A stretch of DNA of 64,000 bases from Acidobacteriota bacterium. GTDB taxonomy: Bacteria > Acidobacteriota > CAIWXX01. The notes below the pieces were generated by a model that did not search any database, was not told the origin of the DNA, and worked only from the letters and a program-made list of their open reading frames with translations. The position numbers were made by a program, and so were the translations under genes. The stretch spans positions 1,887-65,886 of the forward strand of contig JACPPM010000078.1 of the NCBI GenBank assembly GCA_016191015.1, read 5' to 3'. This document shows, piece after piece, positions 21,902-52,863 of the stretch; the stretch's first letter is position 1, and each line of letters begins with the position of its first letter.

Positions 21902-22112
21902 AAGGCTACGGCAAAGTCCCGGAACCCGCAGATTTCACAGATTGACTCGCAGATGTCGCCGATTGCTTCGCGCCGACCCGAGAGTGAGGAGCAAGTTGCT
22001 CGTCGGTTGAATGCTGGAAGAATCTGCGTAATCTGCGCGGAAATCCGTGCCATCTGCGGTTTCGCACGGAACGGCCTCGCCCGAGTCGGCGCCTCGACTT
22101 TGCCGCAGCCCC
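21902..22112. mobile_element. MITE-like 212-bp element, copy A, in the divergent promoter region between the A2M gene and the histidine phosphatase gene
   Basis: Termini aaggctacggcaaagtc ... gactttgccgcagcccc. Internal (c)gcagat-type motifs. A long imperfect palindrome. It generates the spurious ORFs 21953..22159(+), 21906..22322(-) and the start of 21850..22575(-). Confidence 0.7.
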
Positions 22113-22194
22113 GGCTCCCGGGGGGTTGGTTTGAAGCGGCGCGGCTGTTTCTGTTATAAAGTACGATTCGATCGGCGTATGAGGGCGAGGATGT

Positions 22195-22839
22195 ATGGTG
22201 TTGTACCTGATCAGACACGGGGAGACAGATTTCAACGCGGGTAATCTTGTCCAGGGGTGGACCGAGTCGGAGCTGAACGCGACGGGCCGGTGGCAGGCCG
22301 AGATGCTGGCAAAGAGACTCACTCAACCAGACGAGCGGCCGACGGCGATCTACTGTTCCCCGCAGAGCCGGGCGGCGGAAACGGCTCGCCCCACCGCAGA
22401 GGCGCTCGGCCTCCAGCCCGTCTACGACGACGCGCTGATGGAGATGCGGTGCGGGGATTGGGAGGGGCTGAACTTCGACCAGATCAAGCATGAGCGCCGT
22501 GATGAGTTCCATGCGTGGGCAAGGTCGGCGGATAGCTGTATTCCTGGCGGCGGAGAGAGCATTCGAGATCTCCACCGCCGCGCTTCGAAGTCCGCGGATC
22601 GAATCATCTCCTCACACCCGGACGGGTCCCGGATTGCGATTTTCACGCACGGAGGAGTCAACCGGGTCCTGATGGCGCATTTTCTAGGGATCGATCTCCA
22701 GGTGTCGCGCCGCTGCCACCAGGATAACGCATCGATCAGCCTCTTCGTCCGCCGTCTGGACATGTTTTTCATGGACCGCTGGAACGACATTTCACATCTC
22801 GTGAGCGGCACCGACGGCCGCCCGCTGTCGCAGAAATGA
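22195..22839 (+). CDS. Histidine phosphatase family protein (phosphoglycerate mutase-like)
   Basis: The N-terminal motif LYLIRHGETDFN places it in the histidine phosphatase family. A catalytic-His region follows (IFTHGG). Confidence 0.75.
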   Translation: MVLYLIRHGETDFNAGNLVQGWTESELNATGRWQAEMLAKRLTQPDERPTAIYCSPQSRAAETARPTAEALGLQPVYDDALMEMRCGDWEGLNFDQIKHERRDEFHAWARSADSCIPGGGESIRDLHRRASKSADRIISSHPDGSRIAIFTHGGVNRVLMAHFLGIDLQVSRRCHQDNASISLFVRRLDMFFMDRWNDISHLVSGTDGRPLSQK

Positions 22840-24761
22840 TCGAGTTCCTCGAGCTCCTCAGGGAGGAGATACGGGGGCGGGTGCCCGCACTGCGCGAGGT
22901 TGGGATCGCGTTCGAGTACCCGCCGAATCTCTCGATGGGAGATCTTTCGATTGCGGCGGCTTTCGAGCTGGCGAAGCAACAGAAGCGGAAGCCGCGCGAG
23001 ATCGCGACCGAGATCGCCGGTCAGATGCAGGGATTGGCATTCGTACGGCGTGTCGATGTGGCAGGCGGAGGGTACATTAATCTCTTCCTGGACCGGCCGG
23101 CCTTTCTGAAACGAATGCTCGATCCGAGATCCACGGAGGTGGGAGCAGGTCCTGGGGACGGTAAGGTCATCGTCGAGCACACGAACATCAATCCGAACAA
23201 GGCGGCGCACGTCGGGCATCTGCGCAATGCGGTTCTGGGTGACACCCTGGTCCGCCTCCTCAGGTTTCAGGGTCAAGAGGTCGAAGCGCAGAACTACATC
23301 GATGATACCGGCGTGCAAGTCGCGGATGTTGTCTGCGCGTTCATGCACGTGAAGAAGATGTCCCGCGAGCAGGTGGCGGCGATACCCGACCCCTTCGACT
23401 ACTACTGCTGGGATCTGTATGCCGAGTTCTCGACGCGGGTGACACAGGACAAGGAGTTGGAAGGAAGGCGAGAGGAGACGCTGCACCGGATCGAGCAGGG
23501 GGGAAACGAAACGGCCGAGCTCGCGCAAGAGGTCGCGACGCGAATCGTGAAGGCGCACCTGGCCACGATGGAGCGGATTGGGGTGCGATACGACCTTCTG
23601 GCCTGGGAGGGCGATATTATCCGCCGTCGGTTCTGGGCCACCTGCTTCGAGCTGCTGAAGGAAAAAGGGGCGGTCCATCTGGCCCTGGAAGGCAAGAACG
23701 CCGGGTGTTGGGTCATGGACCTGCCGGACCTCCCCGAAGCGGAAAAGGTCATCGTGCGGAGCAGCGGGGTCGTCACTTATGTCGGCAAGGACATCGCCTA
23801 CCAGATGTGGAAGTTCGGACTGCTGGGGATGGACTTCTTCTACAAGGTGTGGGCACGATACCCGGACGGATCGGTCGTCTGGACGACGACGGCTGACACA
23901 TCGGATGAGCACCCCGGGTTTGGGGGCGCATCGTCCGTGTACAACGTGATCGACGTGCGGCAGGCCTATCTCCAGAAGGTTGTCTACAAGGGGCTCGAGG
24001 CGCTGGGGTACCGGGAGCAGAGCGGTCGGTCGGTGCACTTTTCTTACGAGATGGTGGCATTGACTCCGGGGTGTGCGCGGGATCTCGGGTACGAGCTTTC
24101 CCCCGAGGACGAGAAACGGCCGTTTGTCGAGGTGTCTGGCCGCAAGGGGCTCGGCGTCAAGGCCGACGATCTGCTGACCGCGCTGGAGAGGAAGGCCTAC
24201 GACGAGGTCGCCCAGCGTAACCCGCAATACGACGACACCATGCTGCATGAGATGGCGCGATCGGTCGCCTCCGGCGCGCTGCGATATTTCATGCTCCGAT
24301 TCGGCCGGGCAAAGGTCCTCGCCTTCGACCTCAAAGAGGCCCTCAACTTCGACGGCGAGACCGGACCGTATCTGCAGTATGCCGCAGTCCGCGCTCGCAA
24401 TATCTTCGCGAAGCTGAAGGAGCGTGACGGGACGACGGCCGAAACCGTCCGGGGGATCGCGGCGGATGCCGCGAGCTACGCGTATCTGGATGAGGCCGAT
24501 GACATCTGGGACCTGGTGCTCTCGGCCGCGCGGATGGACGAGACCGTGGCCCAGGCGCTGTCGTCTCTCGAGCTCTCGCACGTGGCCAAGTATTCCTATA
24601 CACTCGCACAAAAATTCAACGGTTTCTACCACAAACACCCCATCCTGCATGAAGCTGATCCCGCGAAAAAGCAGCTCAGGATTCTGGCCGCCCACTACCT
24701 CTCGGGCACGATCCAGACGGCGCTGAACCTGCTCGGCATCGAGCTCCCGGAGAGGATGTGA
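22836..24761 (+). CDS. argS: Arginine--tRNA ligase
   Basis: 641 aa. The class I signature is NPNKAAHVGHLRN. ArgS N-terminal add-on domain. An anticodon-binding (DALR) C-terminus ending ...LLGIELPERM. Confidence 0.85.
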   Translation: MIEFLELLREEIRGRVPALREVGIAFEYPPNLSMGDLSIAAAFELAKQQKRKPREIATEIAGQMQGLAFVRRVDVAGGGYINLFLDRPAFLKRMLDPRSTEVGAGPGDGKVIVEHTNINPNKAAHVGHLRNAVLGDTLVRLLRFQGQEVEAQNYIDDTGVQVADVVCAFMHVKKMSREQVAAIPDPFDYYCWDLYAEFSTRVTQDKELEGRREETLHRIEQGGNETAELAQEVATRIVKAHLATMERIGVRYDLLAWEGDIIRRRFWATCFELLKEKGAVHLALEGKNAGCWVMDLPDLPEAEKVIVRSSGVVTYVGKDIAYQMWKFGLLGMDFFYKVWARYPDGSVVWTTTADTSDEHPGFGGASSVYNVIDVRQAYLQKVVYKGLEALGYREQSGRSVHFSYEMVALTPGCARDLGYELSPEDEKRPFVEVSGRKGLGVKADDLLTALERKAYDEVAQRNPQYDDTMLHEMARSVASGALRYFMLRFGRAKVLAFDLKEALNFDGETGPYLQYAAVRARNIFAKLKERDGTTAETVRGIAADAASYAYLDEADDIWDLVLSAARMDETVAQALSSLELSHVAKYSYTLAQKFNGFYHKHPILHEADPAKKQLRILAAHYLSGTIQTALNLLGIELPERM

Positions 24762-24891
24762 AACACGCACGCGAGTTTCTGAGTCATATGGGGGGTGGGA
24801 GTGTTTGCTGGCGGAATAGGGTGCGCGCGGAGTGCACGATGGTGAGCGCTCAGCACCCGGCACTCAGCACGGATCCGGATTTGGAGGAGGC

Positions 24892-25836
24892 ATGATCGAG
24901 GTCGAGAATCTGGGAAAGAAATACGGGGAACGGTACGCCGTCCAGAACCTGAACTTCTCCGTGAAAAAGGGGGAGATCCTCGGGTTTCTGGGACCCAACG
25001 GCGCAGGCAAGACGACGACAATGCGGATCCTGACCTGCTACCTGCCGGCCAATGAAGGGACGGCGCGTGTGGCCGGATTCGATGTGTTCAAGGAGAGCAT
25101 GCAGGTTCGCAAGCGGATCGGGTATCTGCCCGAAAACCCGCCGCTCTATCGTGAGATGGCGGTCTCGTCGTTTCTGGACTTCGTCTCGCGCATCAAGGGT
25201 GTGCCGCGCAGGAAGCGGGCCGGGAGAATCGAGTATGCGCTGAAGCGGTGCATAATCAACGACGTGAAGGACCGGTTGATCCAGCATCTTTCGAAGGGGT
25301 ACAGGCAGCGCGTCGGGCTCGCCGCCGCCCTCGTCAATGACCCTGAGGTCCTGATTCTCGATGAGCCGACCATAGGACTCGACCCGAAGCAGATCATCGA
25401 GATCCGCGAGCTGATCAAATCGCTCGCCGGCGACCACACCGTCATCCTGTCATCGCACATCCTGCCCGAGGTCACCCAGACCTGCCAGCGTGTGGTGATC
25501 ATCAACGAGGGGAAGGTGGTGGCCGAGGACTCGTTCGAGAATCTCTCCGAGCGGTTGCGGAAGGCCGAGCGGATCTCGCTGCAAGTGCGGCGGGACAGCG
25601 CGGAGATTGCCGAGAAGCTGGGAGCCATCGAAGGAGTCGTCAAGGTCTCTCCCGATGGGGAGGCGGCATATCTCATCGAGGCAAAGCTCGGTTCAGACGT
25701 ACGCGAAGAGATTTCGAGCGTGGTCGTTCGCGAGAACTGGGGGCTACTCGAGCTCAGCCCGATGAGGATGAGTATGGAGGATGTCTTCCTCAAACTGACC
25801 ACCGAGGAAGTGGGACTAACCGAATCGATACAGTGA
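24892..25836 (+). CDS. ABC transporter ATP-binding protein (GldA-like)
   Basis: Start at the internal Met MIEVENLGKKYG. Walker A GPNGAGKTT. Signature LSKGYRQR. Walker B ILDEPT. Confidence 0.85.
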   Translation: MIEVENLGKKYGERYAVQNLNFSVKKGEILGFLGPNGAGKTTTMRILTCYLPANEGTARVAGFDVFKESMQVRKRIGYLPENPPLYREMAVSSFLDFVSRIKGVPRRKRAGRIEYALKRCIINDVKDRLIQHLSKGYRQRVGLAAALVNDPEVLILDEPTIGLDPKQIIEIRELIKSLAGDHTVILSSHILPEVTQTCQRVVIINEGKVVAEDSFENLSERLRKAERISLQVRRDSAEIAEKLGAIEGVVKVSPDGEAAYLIEAKLGSDVREEISSVVVRENWGLLELSPMRMSMEDVFLKLTTEEVGLTESIQ

Positions 25837-26612
25837 GGTCGGACATGCGAAATATCTGGGCGATTTTGTTGAGGGAGCTCAAGTCATACTTCGTCTCCCC
25901 GATTGGATATGTTGTCACCGTGGTGTTCCTGATAATTTCCGGGTACTTCTTCTTTTATAGCCTCGTGTGGTTCAACATGCAGTGCATGCAGTTCATGCAG
26001 TACCCGCAGTATGCCAAGGAGCTGAACATCAACGAGATGGTCTTGCGCCCGTTGATGCAAAACATGACCGTTGTCTATCTGTTGGTCATTCCGCTTCTGA
26101 CGATGCGGCTGTTGGCCGAAGAGAGGAAGAACGGCACGGACGAGCTCCTACTCACCTCGCCCGTCACGATGAATCAGATCATCCTCGGGAAGTTCTCCGG
26201 GGCGATGGCGGCGGTGCTTCTCATGCTTGTCCTCACAGGTGTCTATCCCGCTTTTGCCTTCAAGTACTCGAACCCTGAGATCGGGCCGATTCTGAGCGGC
26301 TATCTGGGGCTCCTGTTCCTGGCAGCCTGCTTCGTCACGATCGGGCTCCTCTTTTCTGCACTGACCGAGAACCAGATCGTTGCTGCCGTGCTCACCTTCG
26401 GCGTCCTCCTGATCCTATGGATCATTGATTGGGCCGCCGAATCCGCGAGCTATTCGACGCGGGAGATCATCCAGTATCTCTCGGTGAGGGCCCATCTGGA
26501 CGAGTTGAGCAAGGGCGTGATCGATACGAAGGACATCGTGTTTTATCTGAGCTTCTCCATCTTCGGTCTGTTTCTCACGAAGATGGCGCTCGAGTCCCGG
26601 AGGTGGAGATGA
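25833..26612 (+). CDS. ABC-2 type permease (GldF-like)
   Basis: 259 aa with six predicted TM segments. Translationally coupled to the ATPase upstream. Confidence 0.75.
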   Translation: MRSDMRNIWAILLRELKSYFVSPIGYVVTVVFLIISGYFFFYSLVWFNMQCMQFMQYPQYAKELNINEMVLRPLMQNMTVVYLLVIPLLTMRLLAEERKNGTDELLLTSPVTMNQIILGKFSGAMAAVLLMLVLTGVYPAFAFKYSNPEIGPILSGYLGLLFLAACFVTIGLLFSALTENQIVAAVLTFGVLLILWIIDWAAESASYSTREIIQYLSVRAHLDELSKGVIDTKDIVFYLSFSIFGLFLTKMALESRRWR

Positions 26613-28192
26613 GAGTCATGAATGCATCTGTTATGAGATCCATCGCCGGAACAATCGGCATCGGTATGCTGGTAGCAGCCGGGGTTGTCTATCGAATCAA
26701 GCCCGACTGGAAGACCTACTGTCTGGTCGGTGCAGGCGTCGGTCTTGGACTCTTCATCATGTACCTGGTCCTGAACTGGGCCGAGGTGAAGAAGGCGTTG
26801 AGCGGCCGGTCGACGATCTACAGCGCGAACACCTTCCTGGCCATCGCCATGGTGCTCGGAATCATCGGTCTCGTCAACTTCCTCTCCAACCGGCACCACA
26901 AGAGATGGGACATCACCGAGGGGAAGATCCATTCGCTCTCCGACCAGTCCCTAAAAATTCTGGCGAACCTCGACAAGACGGCTCGGAAGGTGGAAGTCAG
27001 CGCGTTCTTCAAGGAAGGCGACGCGCCCGAGCGGAAAATGAAAGACCTGCTCACGATGTACCAAGCCGAATCGAGGGAGCTGAAGGTCCAATTCTACGAC
27101 CCCGCCAAGAACCCTGGCCTGGCGAAACGCTTCAGCATCGAAGAGTACAACACGACGGTCTTCACGAGCGGGGAGAAGGAAACCAAGATCACCGGCGTTG
27201 GCGAAGAAGAGATCACCAATGCCCTGATCCAGGTGAGCCGCGATCTGCGCAAGACCGTCTACTTTCTCGAGGGTCACGGTGAGGTCAACATAGCGGCCGC
27301 CGAACCCAACGGCTACACGATCGCCAAGGAGCGGCTCGAGAAGGACAACTACTTCGTCAAGAAGTTGCAGCTCGCGACCGCGCCCGCGTTTCCCCACGAC
27401 TGCGCAGTCCTGATTGTCGGCGGTCCGCAGGTAGCCGTGACGCCCCCCGAGCTGAAGGCCATCGACGACTATCTCAGCACGGGCGGCCGGGCCCTCTTCA
27501 TGGTCGATCCCAGGGCCGGGCCCGGGCTCGAGAGCTTTCTCATGCCATGGGGAGTGCGCCTCGGCGACGATATCATCGTCGACCGCGTCTCGCGCGTGTT
27601 CGGCGGGGACGAGCTCATGCCGATCGTTACCGCGTACGAAGAGCACGATCTCACCAAGAAGTTCAACTATGCCACCTTCTACCCTCTCGCGCGCTCGGTC
27701 GATACCGCAGACAAGAACGATCGGGGGGCGACCGACACGGTCGTGGGCAGATCCAGCGATCAGAGCTGGGCCGAGACCGATCCAAAGATCGCCGAATTCA
27801 ATGAGGGTACCGACCGGCTGGGCCCGATCCCCCTCATCGTTGCCGTCACGGCTGAAGGGAAGAAGAAAGAGAATGCCTCTGAGCCTGTCGAGTCGGAGAA
27901 GAAACTCGAAGAAAAGTCGCCACAGACGCGGCTGGTCGTCTTCGGAGACAGCGACTTCGCCAATAACACCTACTACACATTCTCCGGCAATATGAACCTC
28001 TTCCTCAACACCGTTGCCTGGCTTGCCGAGGAGGAGGACCTCATCAGCATCCGGCCCTCGACACAGGCCCCAAAGACGGTCGCACTGTCGCGAGAACAGG
28101 CGTCGCTCATCTTCTGGTCCACCATCATCATCCTGCCCGCGCTCGTGCTGGTGGCCGGGACCGGGGTGTGGGTGAGGCGCCGAAACAAGTAA
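26609..28192 (+). CDS. GldG-like ABC-transporter auxiliary protein (ABC_transp_aux domain)
   Basis: Start at the internal Met MRVMNASV, which overlaps the previous stop (ATGA). N- and C-terminal TM anchors flank a large periplasmic domain. The family block is FMVDPRAGPGLESFLMPWGVRLGDDIIVD. Confidence 0.7.
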   Translation: MRVMNASVMRSIAGTIGIGMLVAAGVVYRIKPDWKTYCLVGAGVGLGLFIMYLVLNWAEVKKALSGRSTIYSANTFLAIAMVLGIIGLVNFLSNRHHKRWDITEGKIHSLSDQSLKILANLDKTARKVEVSAFFKEGDAPERKMKDLLTMYQAESRELKVQFYDPAKNPGLAKRFSIEEYNTTVFTSGEKETKITGVGEEEITNALIQVSRDLRKTVYFLEGHGEVNIAAAEPNGYTIAKERLEKDNYFVKKLQLATAPAFPHDCAVLIVGGPQVAVTPPELKAIDDYLSTGGRALFMVDPRAGPGLESFLMPWGVRLGDDIIVDRVSRVFGGDELMPIVTAYEEHDLTKKFNYATFYPLARSVDTADKNDRGATDTVVGRSSDQSWAETDPKIAEFNEGTDRLGPIPLIVAVTAEGKKKENASEPVESEKKLEEKSPQTRLVVFGDSDFANNTYYTFSGNMNLFLNTVAWLAEEEDLISIRPSTQAPKTVALSREQASLIFWSTIIILPALVLVAGTGVWVRRRNK

Positions 28193-28272
28193 TACCGGGA
28201 TTGACGATTGAATCATTGCCGATTCAGTCATTGACCGGAACGGGTCAATCCAGTCGCTTTGGAAGTGATTCA

Positions 28273-29733
28273 ATGAAACAATGGTTCAATGATCCGACCG
28301 AGGTGCCTATGAATCTCAAGTCTACTCTCGCGCTTTTTCTCGTCCTGGCCGCGCTGGGCGGCTATGTCTACTACACGGAGATCCGCGGACATGAGGACCG
28401 GGACGAGGCAGATCGAAAGAAGGACCGCGTCTTCGACTTGAAAGAGGAGGATGTGGAGAAGCTCGAGCTCTTCACACTCGCCGACGAGAAGGCCGCGGTG
28501 CGGGTCGAACGCTCGGGAGCAGACAAGAAGGAGTGGAAGATCACGGCACCGTTGGCGACCGAGGGCGACAAGGGGGCCATCGGCGGCGTCATCTCCAGTC
28601 TCGCCTATCTGACGAGCCAGCGAATCGTCGAAGAGAACCCCAAGGACCTCGCCCCCTATGGACTCAAGGACACTCAGCACCACATTTCCCTCTGGATGAA
28701 AGGCAAGAAAGACCCGATCGTGCTCACGATCGGCGACAAGAGCACCATCGGCAACTCCTACTATGCATACAGGAAGGACACCGCCAAGGTGTTGATCCTG
28801 GACACGTCCTATGAGCAGTCCGTCCAGAAGGGGCTCTTCGACCTGCGCGAGAAGAAGATCTTCCCGATCGACGACGAGAAGGCGAAACGAATCGAGATCA
28901 CTCGTGTGTCGGACTCGATCGTCCTCGAGAAGGCCGCCCAGGGCTCGTGGCGCCTGCGCCAGCCGACGGAGGTCGAGGGGTCGAAATCGGCAGTGGAGGA
29001 TCTTCTGAGAGAGCTGAAGAACGCGGCGGCAACGAAATTCGCCCAGGAAGAGATGACCGAGGAAAAGGCATTCGGCTTCGACAAACCCCAGGCCAAGGTG
29101 AAGGTGGAGTTCGAGGGTTCGACCGTGCCGGCCGAACTGACGATCGGATCGAAAGGGACCCACGAGAACGACCTCTTCGCGCACTCTTCTCTCAACAAGT
29201 CAGTCGTCATGATCAATGAATCCGTCTTCAATGCCCTCACGAAGCTGGCGGTCGATTTCCGGGAGAAGAACGCCGTGGTCTTCGACCATTACGAGGTGAC
29301 GAAAGTTTCGGTCGTGTATCCCGACTCGACGATTACATGCATCAAATCCGGGGACTACGATTGGAAACTGGATGCGCCGGAGAAGGGCGAGGCCGAAGGG
29401 TCTCGGGTCGACGACCTCCTGTACGCCGCCGATGCCCTGGAGGCCAAGGAGTTCATCGATGAGCCGGACAAAGAGATGGGCAGGTACGGACTCGACAAGC
29501 CCAGGATGACTCTCCGTATCTGGCAGAAGGGCGACAAGGAGCCGCGTGTGGTCATGATCGGAGGTGAGGACCCGGCTAAGAGCCTCACCTACGTGAAGAA
29601 CCTGGCTGTGCCGTACATATTCATGGTGGAAACCGGCGCGACCGAGGATATGTTCCCCAAGCTCGACGAGTTCAAGAAGAAGCCTGAAAGCGAGACGAAG
29701 GCTGATAGCGTCGAAGAGGAAGGCGAGGAGTAG
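28273..29733 (+). CDS. DUF4340 domain protein (frequent GldG partner)
   Basis: Start at MKQWFNDPTEVPMNLKSTLALFLVLAALGGY (TM anchor). Three repeated DUF4340-like modules. An acidic C-terminus. Confidence 0.6.
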   Translation: MKQWFNDPTEVPMNLKSTLALFLVLAALGGYVYYTEIRGHEDRDEADRKKDRVFDLKEEDVEKLELFTLADEKAAVRVERSGADKKEWKITAPLATEGDKGAIGGVISSLAYLTSQRIVEENPKDLAPYGLKDTQHHISLWMKGKKDPIVLTIGDKSTIGNSYYAYRKDTAKVLILDTSYEQSVQKGLFDLREKKIFPIDDEKAKRIEITRVSDSIVLEKAAQGSWRLRQPTEVEGSKSAVEDLLRELKNAAATKFAQEEMTEEKAFGFDKPQAKVKVEFEGSTVPAELTIGSKGTHENDLFAHSSLNKSVVMINESVFNALTKLAVDFREKNAVVFDHYEVTKVSVVYPDSTITCIKSGDYDWKLDAPEKGEAEGSRVDDLLYAADALEAKEFIDEPDKEMGRYGLDKPRMTLRIWQKGDKEPRVVMIGGEDPAKSLTYVKNLAVPYIFMVETGATEDMFPKLDEFKKKPESETKADSVEEEGEE

Positions 29734-39670: not shown

Positions 39671-39904
39671 CTGGTTGTCGCAAGACTACGGCAAAGTCCC
39701 GGAAACCGCAGATTTCACAGATTGACTCGCAGATGTCGCCGACTGCTTCGCGCCGACCCGAGAGTGAGGAGCAGGTTGCTCGTCGGCTGAATGCTGGAAG
39801 AATCTGCGTAATCTGCGCAGAAATCTGCGCCATCTGCGGTTTCGCGCGGAACGGCCTCGCCCGAGTCGGCGCCCCGACTTTGCCGCAGCCCTGCTGGTTG
39901 TCGC
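39671..39904. mobile_element. MITE-like 212-bp element, copy B (39682..39893), with its 11-bp target-site duplication ctggttgtcgc at both ends
   Basis: Termini aagactacggcaaagtc ... gactttgccgcagccctg. The direct repeat ctggttgtcgc sits at 39671-39681 and 39894-39904. It lies in the divergent promoter region between the transglutaminase-like gene and the GH57 gene. The spurious ORFs 39570..39833(-), 39686..39922(-) and the 5' part of 39310..40140(+) lie on it. Confidence 0.8.
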
Positions 39905-41543: not shown

Positions 41544-41548
41544 CCCGC

Positions 41549-42280
41549 CTACCTGCCGGCTTCGACGCGCCTGACCACTCCCATTCCGATCTGCGTCTTT
41601 TGCCCGGCCGAAGCGAAGAAGGCGTAGTCCGCGAGAACATTGAGCTCGTGCAAAATGTCCCGTTGGACGCTGCCCGAGGCCTTGAATGCCACCGTCCCGG
41701 TGAATCCGATTCTGGTGCTACGGTCTTCCTTGAAAGACGTAGTCTCGATCTTCAGGGAGGAGATCGCAAGATGATGATCAGCGGCGTCGACCACTTCTTC
41801 GTGGAGCGCGAACCGCGTGTGCACGTGTTTCCAACGCCGGTAGAGACTGTTGTAGAGCTGGCGCGAGAGTGGGAGCGGAACGTCAAGATCGCCGTGGTGG
41901 AACGATGTCGGCGTGAGAAACTCGAAACAGAATTCCTTGGCCGTCGCGGAGGCTCTGCGGAAGATCTCCTCGTAAGATCTTCTCCCGGCCAACGGATGGG
42001 CTTCGACCGGCCTCAGCAGCATTTCGTGACCATCAATCGGAATCCGCGCCTCGCCAAGCCCGTTGAGGGCCGTCCCTGACCTCTCGTCGATCGTGGCAAT
42101 TCGGATCGCGGGTTCGCCGCTTGCCGCCGCAACCGGAGCGACCGAGAAGGTAAGCAATTCCTGCTCGAGCAAATCCTCACTCACCAGAAGGCCGACTACC
42201 GCCCGGAGGATCCGGGAGGCGTCGGGAGCAGAACCGCCCTTCGGCTCGGACGGCAGTGCAAAAACTACTGCTGCTGGCAT
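41549..42280 (-). CDS. Cas6-like RAMP-fold protein, standalone (no CRISPR array or other cas genes in the window)
   Basis: 243 aa. The C-terminal glycine-rich loop FASAGQKTQIGMGVV aligns to the Cas6 G-loop consensus G(F)GR(H)TSLG(Y)G(M)V. An LTPTSF strand is also present. Assignment rests on motif recognition only. Confidence 0.35.
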   Translation of the reverse strand: MPAAVVFALPSEPKGGSAPDASRILRAVVGLLVSEDLLEQELLTFSVAPVAAASGEPAIRIATIDERSGTALNGLGEARIPIDGHEMLLRPVEAHPLAGRRSYEEIFRRASATAKEFCFEFLTPTSFHHGDLDVPLPLSRQLYNSLYRRWKHVHTRFALHEEVVDAADHHLAISSLKIETTSFKEDRSTRIGFTGTVAFKASGSVQRDILHELNVLADYAFFASAGQKTQIGMGVVRRVEAGR

Positions 42281-44169: not shown

Positions 44170-44362
44170 CAGGTCTGCGGCAAAGTCGAGGCGCCGACTC
44201 GGGCGAGGCCGTTCCGTGCGAACCCGCAGATGGCGCCGATCTCCGCGCAGGTTCCGCGGATCCTTCCAGCATCCACCCGACGCGAAACATCCTACTCACT
44301 CTCGGATCGACGCTTTGCGATCGGCGACATCTGCGAGTGAACCTGCGGCGTCGCAGAGCTTG
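44170..44362. mobile_element. MITE-like element, copy C (opposite orientation, 3' end diverged or truncated)
   Basis: The 5' terminus caggtctgcggcaaagtcgaggcgccgactcgggcgaggccgttccgtgcgaa is nearly identical to copy D. The distal end is degraded. It lies in the divergent promoter region between the DnaJ/PATAN gene and the wHTH regulator. Confidence 0.55.
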
Positions 44363-44467: not shown

Positions 44468-45088
44468 ATGTTGAGTATTGATGGACTGAGCTTTTTCCAA
44501 CCGACCCCTGATCTGCGCGAGCTGATCCTGCTGATGGAGATTGCCAAATGCCCAAAGCTCTCGCAGGCCAAGATGGCCACGAGCGCCGGCATTCGGCCGT
44601 CGATGGCCAATGGCTATCTGAAGCAATTCGTTCGCAGGGGACTCATGCGCAAGGGTGACGGGAACCACAAGAACATGAGCTACCACCTGACGGCGGAAGG
44701 GGAGGCACGGAGAGTCGACCTGCTGTGGAAGTACCTGAACGAGACCGTCGGACTCTACAAGAGAAGCAAGGATGAATTCGTGGAGGCAGTGCGGCGGTTG
44801 AAGGATACGGGGTTCACACGCCTGGTGCTTTACGGGGCGGGGGACACGGGCGAGCTTGTCGTGGCGGTCGCGGAGAAGCTGCAGATGGTGATACTGGGAA
44901 TCGTCGACAGCGATCCGCGCAAACAGGGGACGCTGTTCTGCGGCCGGACCGTGCTCGAGCCGTCGAAGATTCTTCCGCTGAACCCGCAGGCGGTGCTCGT
45001 GACCTCTCTCGGCTACGGGCATCAGATCGCAGCGTCTCTGGGATATCTCGAGGCTGCCGGCGTGAGAGTCGAGACGCTCAAGGTCTAA
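44468..45088 (+). CDS. Winged-helix transcriptional regulator with a C-terminal Rossmann-like domain
   Basis: Start at MLSIDGLSFF. MarR/Lrp-like wHTH (LSQAKMATSAGIRPSMANGYLKQFVRRGLMRK) followed by RLVLYGAGDTGELVVAVAEKLQMVILGIVDSD. It heads the nonulosonic-acid cluster. Confidence 0.45.
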   Translation: MLSIDGLSFFQPTPDLRELILLMEIAKCPKLSQAKMATSAGIRPSMANGYLKQFVRRGLMRKGDGNHKNMSYHLTAEGEARRVDLLWKYLNETVGLYKRSKDEFVEAVRRLKDTGFTRLVLYGAGDTGELVVAVAEKLQMVILGIVDSDPRKQGTLFCGRTVLEPSKILPLNPQAVLVTSLGYGHQIAASLGYLEAAGVRVETLKV

Positions 45089-45094
45089 CCCAAC

Positions 45095-46033: not shown

Positions 46034-47052
46034 GGATCCATGGCAGGCCGATAGGGGGTGGTTCGGCCCCCTTCGTCGTGGCCGAGGTCGGGATCAACCA
46101 CAATGGTGAGTTGGATCTGGCGATCGAGATGGTGAAGGCGGCGGCGAAAGCAGGCGCCGATGCCGTGAAGTTTCAGGCCATTCGCGCCGACAAGCTGTTG
46201 GCGCCGCGAGGAGCCGGCCTGAGCCACGTGAGCGGGTCGGTCCATGATTTTTTCCGCAGTGTCGAGCTCACAACTGATCAATTTTCCAGGATTCGAGCGG
46301 CGTGTCGGGCGGCGGGCATCGGGTTCATCGTCACCCCCTTCGATGAGGGGGTGGCTGACGAGCTGAAAACTGCCGGAGTGGACGCGTTCAAGATCGCCTC
46401 CGGGGACATCACGCACCTGCCTCTCCTGCGTCATGTGGCGCGGAAGCGGCGCCCTCTCATCCTCTCCACCGGAGCCTCGACTCTCACCGAAATTGACACT
46501 GCACTGTCAGCGATCCGACAGTCCTCGGATGTTCCGGTGGTGCTTCTGCACTGTGTCTCCGCCTATCCGGCGGCCGCTCAGGACATGAACTTACGGGCGA
46601 TTCAGGTCATGTCCCGCCGCTTCGCGCTCCCGATCGGGCTTTCCGACCATACCCAGGGCATCCATCTGGCGCTCGCCGCCGTTGCCCTGGGAGCCGTGAT
46701 GATCGAAAAGCACTTCACAATCAGCCGTGGCCTCCCCGGTCCTGACCAGACCTTGTCGGTCGAAGCGGCCGAACTGACCAAGCTGGTGGCCTGCGCTCGT
46801 GAGGTCCACATGGCCCTGGGCGATGGGAAAAAAGTGCCGCGGAGGGCTGAAAGGGAGGCCCGTTCGCAGGGGAGGCGCGCCCTCTACACGATTCGTGATG
46901 TCGAGGCCGGCCGGGCGCTCGAGCTAGGAGACATCGCGGTCCTGCGGCCCGCTGCCGGCCTGCCTCCGGAACACATCGATAGGCTCATCGGGCGCAAGGT
47001 GAAAACCCAGCTTGCAGCAGGCGCGCCGATTAGGGCCAGAGATCTGGCATAA
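46030..47052 (+). CDS. pseI: Pseudaminic acid synthase / N-acetylneuraminate synthase family (NeuB/PseI)
   Basis: 340 aa. NeuB-domain block PFVVAEVGINHNG. C-terminal SAF domain. The PseI rather than NeuB/LegI assignment rests on pseG next door. Confidence 0.7.
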   Translation: MRIHGRPIGGGSAPFVVAEVGINHNGELDLAIEMVKAAAKAGADAVKFQAIRADKLLAPRGAGLSHVSGSVHDFFRSVELTTDQFSRIRAACRAAGIGFIVTPFDEGVADELKTAGVDAFKIASGDITHLPLLRHVARKRRPLILSTGASTLTEIDTALSAIRQSSDVPVVLLHCVSAYPAAAQDMNLRAIQVMSRRFALPIGLSDHTQGIHLALAAVALGAVMIEKHFTISRGLPGPDQTLSVEAAELTKLVACAREVHMALGDGKKVPRRAEREARSQGRRALYTIRDVEAGRALELGDIAVLRPAAGLPPEHIDRLIGRKVKTQLAAGAPIRARDLA

Positions 47053-47075
47053 CTATTGCAATCTTCAATCCGGGA

Positions 47076-48113
47076 GTGAGTATGCGACCAGTGAATACCC
47101 TCGTGACGGCAGCTTCCCGAAGGGTGGGGTTGATCCGGGCCTTCGTGAATGCCCTGCAGGCGATCGGCAACTCCGGGGTCGTGGTATCAACGGACATGAA
47201 CACGTTCTCGCCCGGTCTCTACTTCAGCCACCGGCACTATATCGTTCCGCTGACGACGCATCCCAACTATATCCCGATCATCAAGTCCATCTGTATCAAG
47301 GAGTGTGTTTCTCTCCTCATCCCGACGATCGACGATGAGATTCCGCTCTTCGGCGCATACAAAGATGATTTCGCACGAATTGGCGTTCGCGTCGCCTGCA
47401 GCGGCGCCGACGCGGCTCGGATCTGCAACGACAAGTATGAGACCTTCAGGTTCCTCAGACAAAAAGGGCTCCCTGTGGTCGAGACCTACCTGCCCGGCGC
47501 ATCTCTTCCTCGCAAATTCCCCCTCTTCATCAAGCCGCGATCTGGTCGTGGGAGCGTCGGCGCATACCCGGTCAAGAGCGAGAAGGAGCTCCAGTTTTTC
47601 CTCGGATACATTGAGAATCCGGTTGTGCAGGAGTTCTTGACCGGACGTGAGTTCACGATCGATGTGTGCACGGACTTCCAGGGGAGGGTCCTCTCCGTGG
47701 TGCCGCGGGAGAGGTTAGTGATCAGAGCGGGGGTAAGCGATCGCGGCATCACCGTGAAGGATCGGCGGTTGATTGATCTTGGCGAGCAGGTGACCATGGC
47801 GCTTGGTCTGGTGGGCGCCGCCAACATCCAGCTCAAGATGGATGGCGAGCGCATCCGGATCTTCGAAGTGAACCCACGGTACTCCGGAGGGATCCCGCTC
47901 ACGATTGCGGCTGGTGCGGACTTCCCACGCTGGCAGGTGAAGCTCGTGCTCGGCCGCCGCATCAGACCGAAGCTGGGACAGTTCACGGATGCGCTGACGA
48001 TGGCCTGTTTCGAAGAGGCCCTGTTCCTGGATCGCGAGCGCCTGGTGAAGCAACCGGTTGTCAGCGCTCCTCTCGAGGTCGGCCGGGTCGTCGAGCCTAT
48101 TCAGTTACAATAG
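47076..48113 (+). CDS. ATP-grasp domain protein (carbamoyl-phosphate-synthase-like ligase)
   Basis: 345 aa. ATP-grasp core (CNDKYETFRFL...PLFIKPRSGRGSVGAY...EFTIDVC...IFEVNPRYSGG). Confidence 0.6.
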   Translation: MSMRPVNTLVTAASRRVGLIRAFVNALQAIGNSGVVVSTDMNTFSPGLYFSHRHYIVPLTTHPNYIPIIKSICIKECVSLLIPTIDDEIPLFGAYKDDFARIGVRVACSGADAARICNDKYETFRFLRQKGLPVVETYLPGASLPRKFPLFIKPRSGRGSVGAYPVKSEKELQFFLGYIENPVVQEFLTGREFTIDVCTDFQGRVLSVVPRERLVIRAGVSDRGITVKDRRLIDLGEQVTMALGLVGAANIQLKMDGERIRIFEVNPRYSGGIPLTIAAGADFPRWQVKLVLGRRIRPKLGQFTDALTMACFEEALFLDRERLVKQPVVSAPLEVGRVVEPIQLQ

Positions 48114-48181
48114 GGAGAATGCGAGTGCGAGCAGCGGTCGGTGTCAGACGACAGGTTGGTCTCCTCGCCTGAGGCTTAGGC

Positions 48182-49171
48182 ATGAGGTGGAAGGGGATCG
48201 ACGTTCTCGTCACCGGGGCAGGCGGGTTCATCGGGAGCCATCTCGTTGAAAGGCTCCTGGTCGCGGGTGCGCGCGTCCGAGCCCTCGTCCGATATAACTC
48301 GATGAATGACTGGCACCTGCTGCGCGAGATCCCGGCCGAGTTGCTCTCCCGCGCCACCGTCCTCGAAGGTGACGTCCGCGACCCGTTCTTCGTACGCCGG
48401 GCATGCGACGGCACCGACACCGTCTTCCATCTCGCGGCCACGATCTCGATCCCGCACTCGTATCAGGCCCCGATCGATTTCGTCGACACGAACGTGCTCG
48501 GCACGGCCAACGTCCTCTCTGCTGCGCTCGAGTGCCGCTGCAGGCGAATCATCTGCACATCGACGAGCGAGGTCTATGGCACGGCGGTCACGCGGCCGAT
48601 GGACGAAAACCACCGGCTTCATCCCCAGTCACCGTATGCGGCGAGCAAGGTCGGGGCAGACATGCTGGCCCTCTCCTATTACGACTCCTTCGACGCGCCC
48701 GTGATTGTGGTCAGACCATTCAATACGTATGGTCCGAGGCAGAGTGCGCGCGCGATCATCCCCGCCATCCTCTCGCAGCTCATCGGCGGAGCCACGGTGC
48801 GGATCGGCGATGTCTCGACCAAGCGCGATTTTACATGTGTGTTCGACACGGTCGAGGGGTTCCTGGCAGCCGCGCGGTCGGCGGATGGAGTGGGCCAGGT
48901 GATCAACCTCGGCTCCCAGAGGCCGGTCTCGATCAAGCAGCTCATCGGCCTGGCGGGAAAAGTGGTCGGGCGGAAGCCGAGGATCGTCACGGACCGGCAG
49001 CGCATACGGCCTGACAAGAGCGAGGTGAGGGTCCTTCATGCCGACGCCGGAAGGGCCAGGACTCTGATTGGGTGGGAGTCGCGGATCCCCCTGGAGGATG
49101 GACTGAAGCAGACCTACGACTACATCAAGTCGAGGGTGGACCGATACCGCCCGGGAGAATACCTGAGATGA
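48182..49171 (+). CDS. NAD-dependent epimerase/dehydratase (extended SDR, sugar 4,6-dehydratase-like)
   Basis: 329 aa. Rossmann motif TGAGGFIGSH. Catalytic YAASK. Confidence 0.7.
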   Translation: MRWKGIDVLVTGAGGFIGSHLVERLLVAGARVRALVRYNSMNDWHLLREIPAELLSRATVLEGDVRDPFFVRRACDGTDTVFHLAATISIPHSYQAPIDFVDTNVLGTANVLSAALECRCRRIICTSTSEVYGTAVTRPMDENHRLHPQSPYAASKVGADMLALSYYDSFDAPVIVVRPFNTYGPRQSARAIIPAILSQLIGGATVRIGDVSTKRDFTCVFDTVEGFLAAARSADGVGQVINLGSQRPVSIKQLIGLAGKVVGRKPRIVTDRQRIRPDKSEVRVLHADAGRARTLIGWESRIPLEDGLKQTYDYIKSRVDRYRPGEYLR

Positions 49172-49875
49172 AGGCAGTGATTCTTGCCGGAGGGCGCGGC
49201 ACACGCCTTGCGCCGTACACAACGGTCTTCCCGAAACCGTTGGTTCCAATCGACGATCGCCCGATCGTGGATATCATCCTCGAGCAGCTGTCCCGCCACG
49301 GTTTCACGAACGTGACCATTTCCCTCGGACATCTCGGTCACCTGATCAAGGCCTACTACGCGACTGGCGACGGACACGGACTGACCATCGACTATGTGAC
49401 GGAGAAAGATCCTTTGGGAACGGCGGGCTCCCTGGCGTTGATCCAAGGGCTCGACTCGACCTTCCTCGTCATGAACGGTGACATCCTCACAACGCTCGAG
49501 TATCGGGCGCTGATCGAACACCACCGGAGCAGCGGGGCGGCACTCACGATTGCAGGCCATGTCAAAGAGGTGAGCATCGACCTCGGGGTCCTGGAGATAG
49601 GGGACGGCGGCCTTCTCACCGGGTACCGGGAGAAGCCTGTCGAGACGTTTCCGGTGAGCATGGGGATTTACGTATATGAACCGCGGATGATGCGGCACCT
49701 GGTTCCGGGGGAGTATCTGGATTTCCCGGCGTTGGTGCTGCGCGCCCTGGCGGCCGGCGAGAAGATCTCGGTGTGCAGGAGCGATGCGCTGTGGCTCGAC
49801 ATCGGTCGCCGCGAGGACTACGAAGAGGCTCAGCGTCTGTTCTGCGAGAAAAGGGAGCAGTTCCTTGGCGCGTAG
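49168..49875 (+). CDS. Sugar-phosphate nucleotidyltransferase (glucose-1-phosphate cytidylyl/guanylyltransferase-like)
   Basis: Start at the internal Met MKAVILAGGRGTRLAPYT (the G-x-G-T-R-L signature). Translationally coupled to the SDR gene (ATGA overlap). Confidence 0.7.
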   Translation: MKAVILAGGRGTRLAPYTTVFPKPLVPIDDRPIVDIILEQLSRHGFTNVTISLGHLGHLIKAYYATGDGHGLTIDYVTEKDPLGTAGSLALIQGLDSTFLVMNGDILTTLEYRALIEHHRSSGAALTIAGHVKEVSIDLGVLEIGDGGLLTGYREKPVETFPVSMGIYVYEPRMMRHLVPGEYLDFPALVLRALAAGEKISVCRSDALWLDIGRREDYEEAQRLFCEKREQFLGA

Positions 49876-50647
49876 GACAAGGCCGAGAGTCGCCGGAATC
49901 CTGCAGGCCAGGATGGGGTCGACCCGTCTCCCCGGCAAGGTCCTCCTGAGGCTCGCAGGGAAGACGATTCTGGCACACTGTATCGATCGTATGCGCGAGT
50001 CGGCTGTTCTCGACGATATCGTGGTTGCCACAACCGCCCTGGGGCGTGATGATCGAGTTGCGAGCGAGGCGCTGCGCAACGGCGCGCGCTGTTTCCGCGG
50101 CTCTGAGGACGACGTGTTGGGGCGGTATGCGGGAGCGGCGACAGAGGTGCGGGCGGATGTGGTCGTGAGGGTCACCGCCGACAATCCGCTGACCTGTCCG
50201 GAGGCGATGGCACGCTCGGTTCGTGAGCAGCTCGAAGGGGGATGGGACTACGTCGGCGAGGCTGGGTTGCCGTATGGATCTGCCTGCGAGGTCCTCACCG
50301 CGCGGACGTTGTTCGAGGTGGACCGGATCGCGCGCACCCCCGCACATCGGGAGCATGTGACGCTTTTCATCAAGGAGACGCCGCATCTTTTCACGATCCG
50401 GCTGCTCGATGCCGATCCCGCGAGGACGGCGCCCGAGATTCGCGTGACGATCGACACACCGGAAGACCTCGGTTTCCTGAGGTCGATGGCTCGAAGGCGG
50501 GTGTTGAGCTTCCGGCCGTTTCGCACGGCGGACTTCATTCGCAGGTTGCGTGAGATGCTGCTAACCAAGTCGCAAATGCCGGCCGATACAGAGGACAGGG
50601 GTGGGTGTGCACGTGAGGCATCGGCGGCCAACGGAGGATGTCAATGA
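49865..50647 (+). CDS. pseF: Acylneuraminate (pseudaminic acid) cytidylyltransferase family, PseF/NeuA/SpsF-like
   Basis: Block AGILQARMGSTRLPGKVL. Start tentatively a TTG at 49865. The nearest ATG, at 49913, would remove the conserved AIIQAR-type strand. The start is uncertain by about 50 nt. Confidence 0.6.
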   Translation: MARRTRPRVAGILQARMGSTRLPGKVLLRLAGKTILAHCIDRMRESAVLDDIVVATTALGRDDRVASEALRNGARCFRGSEDDVLGRYAGAATEVRADVVVRVTADNPLTCPEAMARSVREQLEGGWDYVGEAGLPYGSACEVLTARTLFEVDRIARTPAHREHVTLFIKETPHLFTIRLLDADPARTAPEIRVTIDTPEDLGFLRSMARRRVLSFRPFRTADFIRRLREMLLTKSQMPADTEDRGGCAREASAANGGCQ

Positions 50648-50916
50648 TACGCCTGACACGACTCAACTCCAGCGAGGTCATCGTCAACTCGGATCTGGTG
50701 GAGTTCATCGAGCTGACGCCCGATACGATTGTGTCCCTCACGACGGGCGAGAAGATTATCGTGAAGGAGGGTGCCGAGGAGATCATCGAGAAGATCATCG
50801 AGTTCAAGCGGAGGGTCTTCAATCGGGAGATCCCGGTCCGGACACCCCGGTTGCTTCCGGACGACCAGGACCCCGACGAGGGTCGGGCCGGCCCGAGGGC
50901 CCCAGCAGAGGACTGA
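50644..50916 (+). CDS. flbD: Flagellar protein FlbD
   Basis: MIRLTRLNSSEVIVNSDLVEFIELTPDTIVSLTTGEKIIVKEGAEEIIEKIIEFKRRV matches the FlbD family consensus (MIKLTRLNG.EF.LN.DLIE..E.TPDT.I.LT.G.K..VKES). Confidence 0.75.
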   Translation: MIRLTRLNSSEVIVNSDLVEFIELTPDTIVSLTTGEKIIVKEGAEEIIEKIIEFKRRVFNREIPVRTPRLLPDDQDPDEGRAGPRAPAED

Positions 50917-50919
50917 TCC

Positions 50920-51720
50920 ATGGATATCACTTCGGTCGGCGGTCTCATCCTGGGGATCTTCGCGGTGCTGCTGGGGCAAGCGCTCGAGGGAGGCAGCATC
51001 ATGTCGATTGTCCAGCCGACGGCGGCCTTGATCGTGTTTGGCGGCACGATCGGCGCGACCGTCCTGGGCTTCCCCCTGCGGGTAGTTCTGCAGGCCGCCC
51101 GGAGTGTCTCCTCGGTGTTCAAGGAAAAGAATGTTGCTCCGGAACGCATGATCGAGGAGATCCTGGCGTTCGCGAACAAGGCGCGCCGGGAAGGGATCAT
51201 TTCGCTGGAGCCTGAGATGCAGCGAGTCAAGAATTCCTTTCTGAAGAAGGCGCTGACGATGGCAATCGACGGTACGGATCCGAAGGTGCTCAAGGAGACG
51301 ATGGAGACCGAGCTGGCTCACATGGAGGAGCACGGAGAGATGCCGTCGAAAGTATTCGAGGCGGCCGGTGGTTTTGCGCCCACCATCGGGATCCTCGGCG
51401 CCGTCCTCGGGCTCATTCACGTCATGGAGAACCTGGCGGACCCCTCCAAGCTCGGAGAAGGAATCGCCGTCGCGTTCGTCGCGACGGTCTACGGTGTCGG
51501 CACGGCCAACCTGGTATTCCTGCCGATCGCATCGAAGCTCAAAGCCAAGCATCGCATCGAGATGGCGTTGCACGAGATGCTGCTGCAGGGTGCCATGTCC
51601 GTCCAGGAGGGGCTCAACCCGCGCATCATCGAGGAGAAGCTGCTCGCGTTCCTGAACGAGGAACAGAAAGCGCGATGGAAGAGCAAGGTCGATGCGGCAG
51701 CGAAACGAAAGGCGGCGTGA
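50920..51720 (+). CDS. motA: Flagellar motor stator protein MotA
   Basis: 266 aa, four TM segments. Conserved plug and TM3-4 region (AAGGFAPTIGILGAVLGLIHVM, TVYGVGTANLVFLPIASKL). Confidence 0.8.
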   Translation: MDITSVGGLILGIFAVLLGQALEGGSIMSIVQPTAALIVFGGTIGATVLGFPLRVVLQAARSVSSVFKEKNVAPERMIEEILAFANKARREGIISLEPEMQRVKNSFLKKALTMAIDGTDPKVLKETMETELAHMEEHGEMPSKVFEAAGGFAPTIGILGAVLGLIHVMENLADPSKLGEGIAVAFVATVYGVGTANLVFLPIASKLKAKHRIEMALHEMLLQGAMSVQEGLNPRIIEEKLLAFLNEEQKARWKSKVDAAAKRKAA

Positions 51721-52599
51721 ATGTCCAGAAAGAGACCCGACGATCATCCGAACCACGAGAGGTGGCTCGTCTCGTACGCTGACTTCATTACGCTTCTGTT
51801 CGCGTTTTTCACGGTTCTCTACGCGATCTCATCGGTCGATTCGAAGAAGATGAACCGGCTTGTGATGGCGATGCAGATGGCGTTCGATACGCAGGGATTC
51901 CCGGGCAAGGACTCGAAAATCGGTCTGTCACAGAGCGAGAGCTCGCCCACGATCGCCGAACAGCTCAGCCAGGGTATCCTTCCTCCATCGGTGACAGCCA
52001 CGTCACGGCGAATCAACCCGAACCCGAGCAAGGCAATTGGGGTCGACAGGAAGAATTTCGACATCGACATCATCAAGGCGAGGGTGGAAGAGGCGATCAG
52101 GGAGGAAATCCTGACCGGCAAAGTCAGTGTTCTCCAAGAGGATCGCGGGCTGGTTGTCTCGCTGGCCGAACACGGCTTCTTCGATTCGGGGAAGGCCTTC
52201 GTCAGACCGGATGCGCTGCCGATCCTGGACAAGCTCGCCTCCTCACTCTCCGGCCTGCCCAACCATGTCCGCATCGAGGGCCACACGGACAACATGCCGA
52301 TCAACACGGCGCAGTTTCCCTCGAATTGGGAGCTATCGACGGCGCGAGCGACCTTCATCATCCAGTACATGCTCTCGAGATTCCGCTTCCCCCCCGAAAC
52401 CCTCTCGGCCGCAGGCTACGGCGAATACAGGCCGGTCGCGACCAACGACACTCCCGCGGGGCGCGCCAAGAACCGTCGCGTCGACATCGTCATCCTCAAC
52501 GAAATCTATACCGAACGCGAGGAACCGGTTCCGTACACGGAGAGCACCGGCCCGAGCCAAGTCGAGGCCCCTCCCGAGCTCAGCAAAGCGGCACTCTGA
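51721..52599 (+). CDS. motB: Flagellar motor stator protein MotB (OmpA-like C-terminus)
   Basis: N-terminal WLVSYADFITLLFAFF plug and TM. C-terminal OmpA/PG-binding domain (RIEGHTDN...SNWELSTARA...GYGEYRPVATNDTPAGRAKNRRVDI). Confidence 0.8.
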   Translation: MSRKRPDDHPNHERWLVSYADFITLLFAFFTVLYAISSVDSKKMNRLVMAMQMAFDTQGFPGKDSKIGLSQSESSPTIAEQLSQGILPPSVTATSRRINPNPSKAIGVDRKNFDIDIIKARVEEAIREEILTGKVSVLQEDRGLVVSLAEHGFFDSGKAFVRPDALPILDKLASSLSGLPNHVRIEGHTDNMPINTAQFPSNWELSTARATFIIQYMLSRFRFPPETLSAAGYGEYRPVATNDTPAGRAKNRRVDIVILNEIYTEREEPVPYTESTGPSQVEAPPELSKAAL

Positions 52600-52629
52600 C
52601 GTCCGCATCCTACGACAGATTGGCCTGCC

Positions 52630-52863
52630 GGCCATCTTCGCAGGGCTGCGGCAAAGTCGAGGCGCCGACTCGGGCGAGGCCGTTCCGTGCGAAACCGCAG
52701 ATGGCGCAGATTTCCGCGCAGATTACGCAGATTTTACCAGCATTCAACCGACGAGCAACTTGCTCCTCACTCTCGGGTCGGCGCGAAGCAATCGGCGATA
52801 TCTGCGAGTCAATCTGTGAAATCTGCGGTTTCCGGGACTTTGCCGTAGTCTTGGCCATCTTCG
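52630..52863. mobile_element. MITE-like 212-bp element, copy D (52641..52852), flanked by its 11-bp target-site duplication ggccatcttcg
   Basis: Termini cagggctgcggcaaagtc ... gactttgccgtagtctt. The direct repeat ggccatcttcg sits at 52630-52640 and 52853-52863. Inverted relative to copy B. The spurious ORFs 52610..52900(-) and the 3' part of 52326..52916(+) lie on it. Confidence 0.8.

Follow-up and report, generated by a model that had tools for sequence, protein, structure and literature searches.

A probable ISAs1-related MITE family with an inverted heptamer-array core in an Acidobacteriota genome

Background

How does one palindromic unit of about two hundred base pairs come to lie between unrelated genes at several places on a bacterial contig, and to what kind of mobile DNA, if any, does it belong? 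The question is raised by a stretch of 64,000 nucleotides from an Acidobacteriota bacterium (GenBank assembly GCA_016191015.1, contig JACPPM010000078.1), referred to here in its full length as the window, in which such a unit recurs. A preliminary description made from the sequence had read the unit as a miniature inverted-repeat transposable element (MITE) of 212 bp with 11-bp target duplications. Our analysis suggests that the copies very probably form a non-autonomous MITE family with units of 213 bp that are bounded by imperfect ISAs1-type inverted repeats of 19 bp, and with a 10-bp target duplication. The earlier identification as a MITE stands on every count that could be tested: the terminal inverted repeats, the site-specific duplications, the absence of transposase coding, the multiple copies and an empty site in relatives all hold.

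Results and discussion

Copies of the element and their gene context

Site reading, alignment, and repeat and BLAST searches of the window confirm a single repeat family at four sites plus one fragment, in keeping with the copies and the secA-leader fragment first reported. Copy A (21901-22113, + strand) is full length and occupies the gap between an A2M-like gene (- strand) and a histidine phosphatase gene (+ strand). Copy B (39681-39893, + strand), also full length at 213 bp, lies between a transglutaminase-like gene (- strand) and a GH57 branching-enzyme gene (+ strand; start at about 39954) whose product is GenBank MBI2837626.1 (100% identity). Copy D (52641-52853, - strand; full length, 213 bp) sits between the motB stop (52599) and a methyltransferase start (53013), in the orientation opposite to B, as had been recognized. 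The MotB and methyltransferase proteins have consecutive GenBank accessions, and the depositor annotation therefore holds nothing over D. Copies A, B and D are mutually 95-97% identical over 211-214 nt.

The remaining two members are more diverged. Copy C (44170 to about 44372, - strand) is older and lies between a PATAN-DnaJ-TPR gene (- strand; start at about 44100) and a regulator gene (+ strand; 44429). It is about 85% identical to the other copies over about 177 nt, and its far (left) end is degenerate; it probably extends to about 44372 rather than ending at 44362 as given before. The fragment (5600-5685, + strand) is a degenerate right half: besides the side hairpin it retains three of the heptamers and, in decayed form, the right terminal repeat. 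Over 5609-5681 its identity to the 73 nt at the right of the element is 77-79%. The likely start of secA follows about 57 nt downstream.

Every copy, including the fragment, is intergenic, as first stated, and the gene context is borne out by Pfam. The starts or stops of the GH57 branching-enzyme, A2M-like, PATAN-DnaJ and motB genes lie 40-70 nt from the copies, the distance from copy D to the motB stop codon being 41 nt. The 64 kb contain seven exact matches to the terminal motif CTRCGGCAAAGTCS, each at the end of a copy; with up to two mismatches allowed the number is nine, against 1.8 expected in shuffled sequences, and none of 100 shuffles reaches nine. The GC content of the window is 61.8%.

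Target duplications and an empty site

Copy B is flanked by ctggttgtcg on the left (39671-39680) and again on the right (39894-39903), and copy D by gccatcttcg on both sides (52631-52640 and 52854-52863). Since the flanking repeats of B and D differ from each other, they are target DNA outside the element and not part of a longer conserved repeat. A further copy, found in a metagenome contig (L125), is flanked by tctgatctcG and tctgatctcA.

The preliminary description had suggested comparing empty sites in relatives. Two contigs from a sister species, L253 (SRR22388139) and L254 (SRR22388342), which were reached via 90%-identity protein clusters, are 86-90% identical to the window at the nucleotide level and have the transglutaminase and GH57 genes arranged as in the window. 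Across the B locus the alignment of each has a single gap of exactly 223 nt, with the target present once (tCGATTTTCGcg where the window has CTGGTTGTCGcg). This gap equals the element plus one duplication and therefore marks a clean empty site, from which B is precisely absent in both contigs.

Architecture of the unit

The unit consists, in order, of a 19-bp left end, an array of four heptamers, a centre of about 60 nt, an inverted array, a side hairpin of about 30 nt and the right end. The left end is CAAGRCTACGGCAAAGTCC and the right end, read inward, is CAGGGCTGCGGCAAAGTCG; in copy B these terminal inverted repeats occupy 39681-39699 (+ strand; CAAGACTACGGCAAAGTCC) and 39875-39893 (- strand; inward CAGGGCTGCGGCAAAGTCG). 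The two ends agree at 15-16 of 19 positions, which upholds the inverted-repeat termini proposed earlier. The left tip is CAAGG in A and in L125, and the right tip of A is mutated to CGGGG from CAGGG. The left array of copy B (39707-39743, + strand) contains four CGCAGAT-type heptamers spaced 9, 12 and 9 nt apart, and the right array (39802-39838, + strand), which is inverted relative to the left one, contains four ATCTGCG heptamers with the same spacing of 9, 12 and 9 nt. The side hairpin (39843-39874, + strand; GCGCGGAACGGCCTCGCCCGAGTCGGCGCC) is found in the right arm only and is the best-conserved stretch of the family. The open frames of the element are short and match no family. A peptide encoded by the MITE (...GLARVGAPTLPQP) was considered as a transposase carboxy terminus and rejected, since it resembles the Streptomyces carboxy terminus only across the like terminal repeats and is uninformative.

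Ends of the ISAs1 type

The ISAs1 family has inverted repeats of 14-22 bp that start with CAGGG and makes 10-bp direct repeats, and experimental transposition of an ISAs1 element in Frankia involved a 19-bp inverted repeat and a 10-bp direct repeat (PMC11946415). ISArsp11, an ISAs1-family element of an Arthrobacter plasmid, has the left repeat CAGGGCTGATGCAAAGTCG, the right repeat CAGGGCTAATGCAAAGTCG and a 10-bp direct repeat (PMC6305408). The right end of the MITE, CAGGGCTGCGGCAAAGTCG, is identical to the left repeat of ISArsp11 at 17 of 19 positions. In addition, an ISAs1 element of Streptomyces NBC_00829, whose protein carries PF01609 and PF13808, has CAGGGCTTCGGCGTAGTCG at both ends, 16 of 19 positions of which agree with the MITE. 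The ends of Escherichia coli ISEc1 (YhhI), CAGGGAAAGATC... and CAGGGCAAGATT..., are likewise of the CAGGG type. A tblastn search of plasmids with YhhI located ISAs1 transposases, and the ends of eight elements were inspected; CAGGG ends were verified on six ISAs1 elements. Three of these, the Hydrogenophilus, Azospirillum and ISRm21 elements, combine CAGGG ends with exact 10-bp duplications (caacgctcga, gccggtcacg and cccttgaggg, respectively), and in none of the three is the right duplication followed by a repeat of the element's C.

The window element and the ISAs1 family (ISAs1, ISEc1/H-repeat, ISArsp11 and ISRm21, with a PF01609 + PF13808 DDE transposase) are thus alike in their ends of about 19 bp of the CAGGG type and in a 10-bp duplication. 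They differ in that the window element is 213 bp long rather than 1.2-1.5 kb, lacks a transposase gene, has the left tip CAAGR and has an unrelated interior. Judged from these sequence matches, ISAs1 is supported as a concrete candidate for the parent family, which goes beyond the preliminary description.

A plausible mechanism would run as follows. An ISAs1-family DDE transposase, presumably encoded elsewhere in the genome, would bind both ends of the element and excise or copy it, and the element would then be inserted at a 10-bp staggered cut, the repair of which would yield the 10-bp target duplication. The gene-less interior is a hairpin-forming palindrome made of two inverted arrays of four CGCAGAT heptamers and the 30-nt side hairpin. 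Copies land in intergenic DNA near the starts and ends of genes, could be lost or decay through deletion and may act as substrates for recombination, as copy A may have done. Transposition may still be possible.

Inverted heptamer arrays beyond the element

The heptamer arrays are not confined to the MITE. A palindrome of about 100 nt at L125:1609-1708, only 290 nt from the MITE copy of that contig, contains three CGCAGAT heptamers per arm and has no ISAs1-type ends. We scanned IMG/VR with the pattern ATCTGCGNNATCTGCGNNATCTGCG, which has 21 specified bases and by our estimate about 0.03 chance matches. The scan gave 98 loci, many of them coding tandem repeats, and 23 of the matches (about 20 distinct, in contigs of uncultivated phages) are palindromes of the same design. 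They include L155, L158, L168, L169, L172, L175, L178, L180, L186 and L193, and further L199, L203, L206, L207, L214, L215, L222, L233 and L243. On two megaplasmids of Gemmatirosa kalamazoonensis (L250, L251), a member of the Gemmatimonadota, the arrays occur both as pairs and as solo arms, and a Segatella copri plasmid has the same arrays in a different arrangement. The arrays are absent from cultured-phage records and from Rfam, and a full-text literature search by sequence gave no paper.

The arms follow the consensus (TT)ATC-CGCAGAT-K-N-CGCAGAT-K-N-CGCAGAT with a period of 9 nt, and the spacer between arms varies from 15 to 140 nt. The outer ATC is nearly invariant though it was unconstrained by the scan pattern. 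The N positions agree between the two arms in only 10/24 and 7/24 elements; what is conserved is therefore the heptamers and not the pairing. Copies within one contig, and some in different contigs, have common spacer sequence and are therefore dispersed homologous repeats, and no target duplications were found at the IMG/VR palindromes. The palindromes lie in short gaps beside genes for portal, capsid, terminase and a tail-related 'phage stabilisation protein'. One phage, UViG_3300033153_010704, has 24 nt in common with the left end of the MITE (CAAAGaCCCGGAggAACCGCAGATT); the similarity reaches the inner half of the terminal repeat, not the CAGGG tip.

Could the element then be a host or phage palindromic module, such as a relative of repetitive extragenic palindromes (REP) and bacterial interspersed mosaic elements (BIME) or a protein-binding heptamer array, which was spread by recombination or by an unknown enzyme and whose ISAs1-like ends are secondary or coincidental? 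The inverted CGCAGAT arrays without terminal repeats in L125, in the phage contigs and on the Gemmatirosa plasmids speak for this, as do the conservation of heptamers whose spacer bases are not complementary between arms and the array-only elements without target duplication. We nevertheless regard it as unlikely, because the unit that moved in the window is bounded precisely by ISAs1-type ends, with 10-bp duplications and the 223-nt empty-site gap, and because arrays in the window never occur outside the copies. REP and BIME sequences share with the element an intergenic position, often after stop codons, two inverted arms with a variable linker, and solo arms. The arms of the element, however, are built of 9-nt units in tandem, where REP and BIME arms are single imperfect palindromes that have a GTAG/CGTC head. 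The copies in the window also have ends and duplications of the transposon type, and no RAYT gene was seen.

The MITE can be read as ISAs1-type tips around a heptamer-array module, and this module may be the only part that is new in kind. A tentative extension, for which we claim no more than a possibility well short of even, is that the element is a chimera in which ISAs1-type ends enclose one representative of a widespread and so far undescribed class of heptamer-array palindromes. The conserved heptamers with non-complementary spacers would make the arrays sequence-specific sites for a host or phage protein rather than a plain hairpin, and the MITE would spread these putative protein sites through the acidobacterial chromosome. 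In the window the heptamer is free of strand skew. Among known kinds of site, neither DnaA boxes nor Chi sites nor arm-type integrase sites appear to fit the arrays.

Separately, L159 and L177 in IMG/VR and L252:1455-1560 on the Segatella copri plasmid contain ATCTGCG/ATCTGTG triplets in low-GC DNA of the Bacteroidota type. Their architecture, in which direct, repeated heptamer blocks are followed by TGACAAAA, is unlike that of the palindromes.

Length of the duplication and search for a parent

In all full-length copies (A, B, D and L125), AAG is preceded by a C. The element therefore starts with CA at both ends and is 213 bp long, the earlier length of 212 bp having left this terminal C out. 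It follows from the flanking bases that the duplication is most likely 10 bp, and the eleventh matching base in B and D is most simply a chance agreement with the terminal C of the element, a coincidence that we estimate at about 0.3 per site at the GC content of the window. The 11-bp duplications reported earlier are thus exact and site-specific at B and D, but their length is most likely 10 bp.

Several observations weigh against a 10-bp, ISAs1-type element. Copies B and D each have 11 matching flanking bases (ctggttgtcgc at 39671 and 39894; ggccatcttcg at 52630 and 52853), so that the window alone also fits 11 bp; the 223-nt gap is fitted equally well by 213 + 10 and by 212 + 11; and no intact duplication was found at copies A and C. 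The left end begins with CAAGR (CAAGG or CAAGA) and not CAGGG, a difference of one or two changes, and canonical ISAs1 ends come without heptamer arrays, so that the interior is not from a typical parent. In addition, searches of the window, IMG/VR and PLSDB gave no autonomous ISAs1 element that has these ends (the host genome outside the window was not searched), and a parent search seeded with the Streptomyces ISAs1 transposase gave named matches only in Streptomyces and its close relative Kitasatospora. A scan of IMG/VR with the 18-base end gave seven chance matches, none with an inverted partner, and BLAST of the whole element and of a 32-nt end against PLSDB plasmids gave chance matches only. 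As for the earlier statement that the window holds no transposase gene, tblastn with eight ISAs1 transposases found none of the ISAs1 type encoded there; other transposase families were not screened.

These points raise the alternative that the element is a 212-bp MITE whose parent belongs to a different DDE family, one with 11-bp duplications; the IS4 and IS231 groups within the IS4 family would be examples. In that family, too, the ends start with CA, and duplications of 10-13 bp are known from some of its subgroups (ISfinder family tables). The 11 identical flanking bases at B and at D are what this alternative would predict. It is nonetheless improbable: the 19-bp end matches one ISAs1 element at 17 and another at 16 of 19 positions, the three verified ISAs1 elements make exactly 10 bp, and the flanks of L125 agree at 9/10 positions under a 10-bp model and at 9/11 under an 11-bp model. 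The extra C before AAG in A, B, D and L125 is also more simply taken as the first base of the element, which gives equal-length ends that both begin with CA. An IS4 origin is compatible with the flanking repeat in its length only, and the ISAs1 match makes such an origin unnecessary.

Folding of the unit

The whole unit folds as one long imperfect hairpin with a side branch, with folding energies of -94 and -112 kcal/mol for the two strands as RNA and -55 kcal/mol as DNA. The corresponding z-scores are -4.3, -6.9 and -4.75 and no shuffled sequence folds equally well; the long imperfect palindrome seen earlier is real. Compensatory changes are found at three base pairs among five copies, which are too few for arguing selection on structure. 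A promoter scan found no sigma-70-like promoter in or beside copies A, B and D. No terminator-like T-run lies within these three copies either, and a single terminator-like match spans the mutated right tip of A and its flank. Rfam has no match at gathering thresholds in the whole window and none at E<=1 in 4200-5760, and a gathering-threshold scan of 11 related loci gave only ACA64, which is unrelated and away from the elements.

That the copies are structured small-RNA genes, or a transcription terminator or attenuator, duplicated for that function is very improbable, since the very stable folds, the three compensatory pairs and the position of D just past the motB stop codon have to be set against the missing Rfam, promoter and T-run matches, folding on both strands, an orientation that varies relative to the neighbouring genes, and target duplications and an empty site, which are marks of transposition and not of gene duplication.

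Copy number and distribution

The ISAs1-type MITE family is rarely seen in public data. Of the 17 loci that a 20-base pattern from the right end matched in a metagenome scan, one is a true copy (L125, 91-93% identical to the window copies); the other 16 were rejected as coincidences in coding sequence, for example in a PIN-like gene. A scan of a genome collection with CTRCGGCAAAGTCSNGG, which has 14 specified bases and is too short, gave 113 single chance matches in unrelated genomes, none with the element. A protein search with the concatenated six-frame translation of copy B gave one match (P0121), the partial protein MBI2837186.1 of the same metagenome-assembled genome, which runs into one further copy where a 17.5-kb contig ends. 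L114, a Logan short-read contig from the same organism (100% identical), has its two ends 24 nt inside C and 27 nt inside D. The expectation that the element is abundant genome-wide is thus supported indirectly, by a further copy in the same assembled genome and by contig breaks in C and D, while in public data at large the family is rare.

No copy of the family was found in about 48 kb of sister-species DNA. Given this absence and the rarity in public data, the expansion is therefore specific to the lineage of the window. In a more distant relative (82% GH57 identity) the element is absent both upstream of GH57 and at site C. In the sister species site C is occupied by unrelated sequence that holds an inverted array of GGGAAC hexamers, and the contigs break there. 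Such inverted GGGAAC-type arrays (the last 15 nt or so of L253 and L257:1-90) form a second kind of array palindrome in that species, and tandem GGGAAC/GGGTAC hexamers (x5) are found in the window at 8440-8475, between the secA stop and the next gene.

Site D tells a different story in GCA_040960765.1, a genome 94-95% identical to the window. About 30 nt lie there between two copies of the duplication (L256:515-555; GCCATCTTCG ... cAGATCTTCG, the second being imperfect). The first 17 nt of this remnant resemble the element end (12/17) and the next 14 nt resemble the element centre, which looks like a relic or the footprint of an imprecise loss. The remnant has diverged from the MITE beyond what is expected for a genome divergence of 5%, and much further than the flanks have from the window.

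In comparison with the sister species, synteny breaks at copy A. Homology to the sister species starts 12 nt to the right of A (window 22114-22126 against L255:9911-9960). On the left of A, where the A2M-like gene lies in the window, the sister species instead carries Memo, an unannotated small open frame and a Ser/Thr protein kinase, none of which is found anywhere in the window. The breakpoint would fit a recombination between copies, which could also explain the unmatched flanks of A.

Relation to other short mobile elements

Bacterial MITEs include the Correia/NEMIS elements of Neisseria and MIC231 of Bacillus. Like these, the window element is short, non-coding, multi-copy and intergenic, has terminal inverted repeats and target duplications, forms hairpins and breaks short-read assemblies; it differs in belonging to another sequence family and another host phylum, the Acidobacteriota. 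No description of an ISAs1-derived MITE was found in the literature searched, a search that was not exhaustive. MITEs common to prokaryotes and their viruses have been described as vMITEs (PMC11602168). The inverted CGCAGAT core of the window element is also found in phage contigs, where, in contrast to the window copies, the array elements lack the outer ISAs1-type tips and target duplications. The element is best described as an ordinary kind of mobile DNA with an unusual repeat-array core.

The family provides a concrete, checkable case of an ISAs1-linked MITE in Acidobacteriota, a phylum with little-described mobile DNA. With copies near gene starts and stops, one of them at a breakpoint, and with relatives that differ in which copies they have, the family has recently contributed structural, and possibly also regulatory, variation to this lineage. 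The copies also cause contig breaks and spurious open frames in the assemblies of this organism. Finally, the common array core links a bacterial chromosome to phage genomes, and may help to assign hosts to phages or indicate an unknown DNA-binding factor.

Other features of the window

A lone Cas6-like gene (41549-42280, - strand), with PF10040 in its orthologues, lies between the GH57 and PATAN-DnaJ genes. Its position is conserved in relatives down to 73% GH57 identity, and the window contains no CRISPR array. A second repeat family is represented by two direct copies of about 240 bp (4295-4538 and 5242-5484), which are about 88% identical and flank a small, lower-GC open frame (4652-5140) with a signal-peptide-like amino terminus and no Pfam match; the repeat itself matches nothing in Rfam at E<=1. 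Its 3' part is also found at L254:1-60, where a sister-species contig begins at another locus (beside selA), and the repeat is therefore a dispersed element that likewise breaks assemblies.

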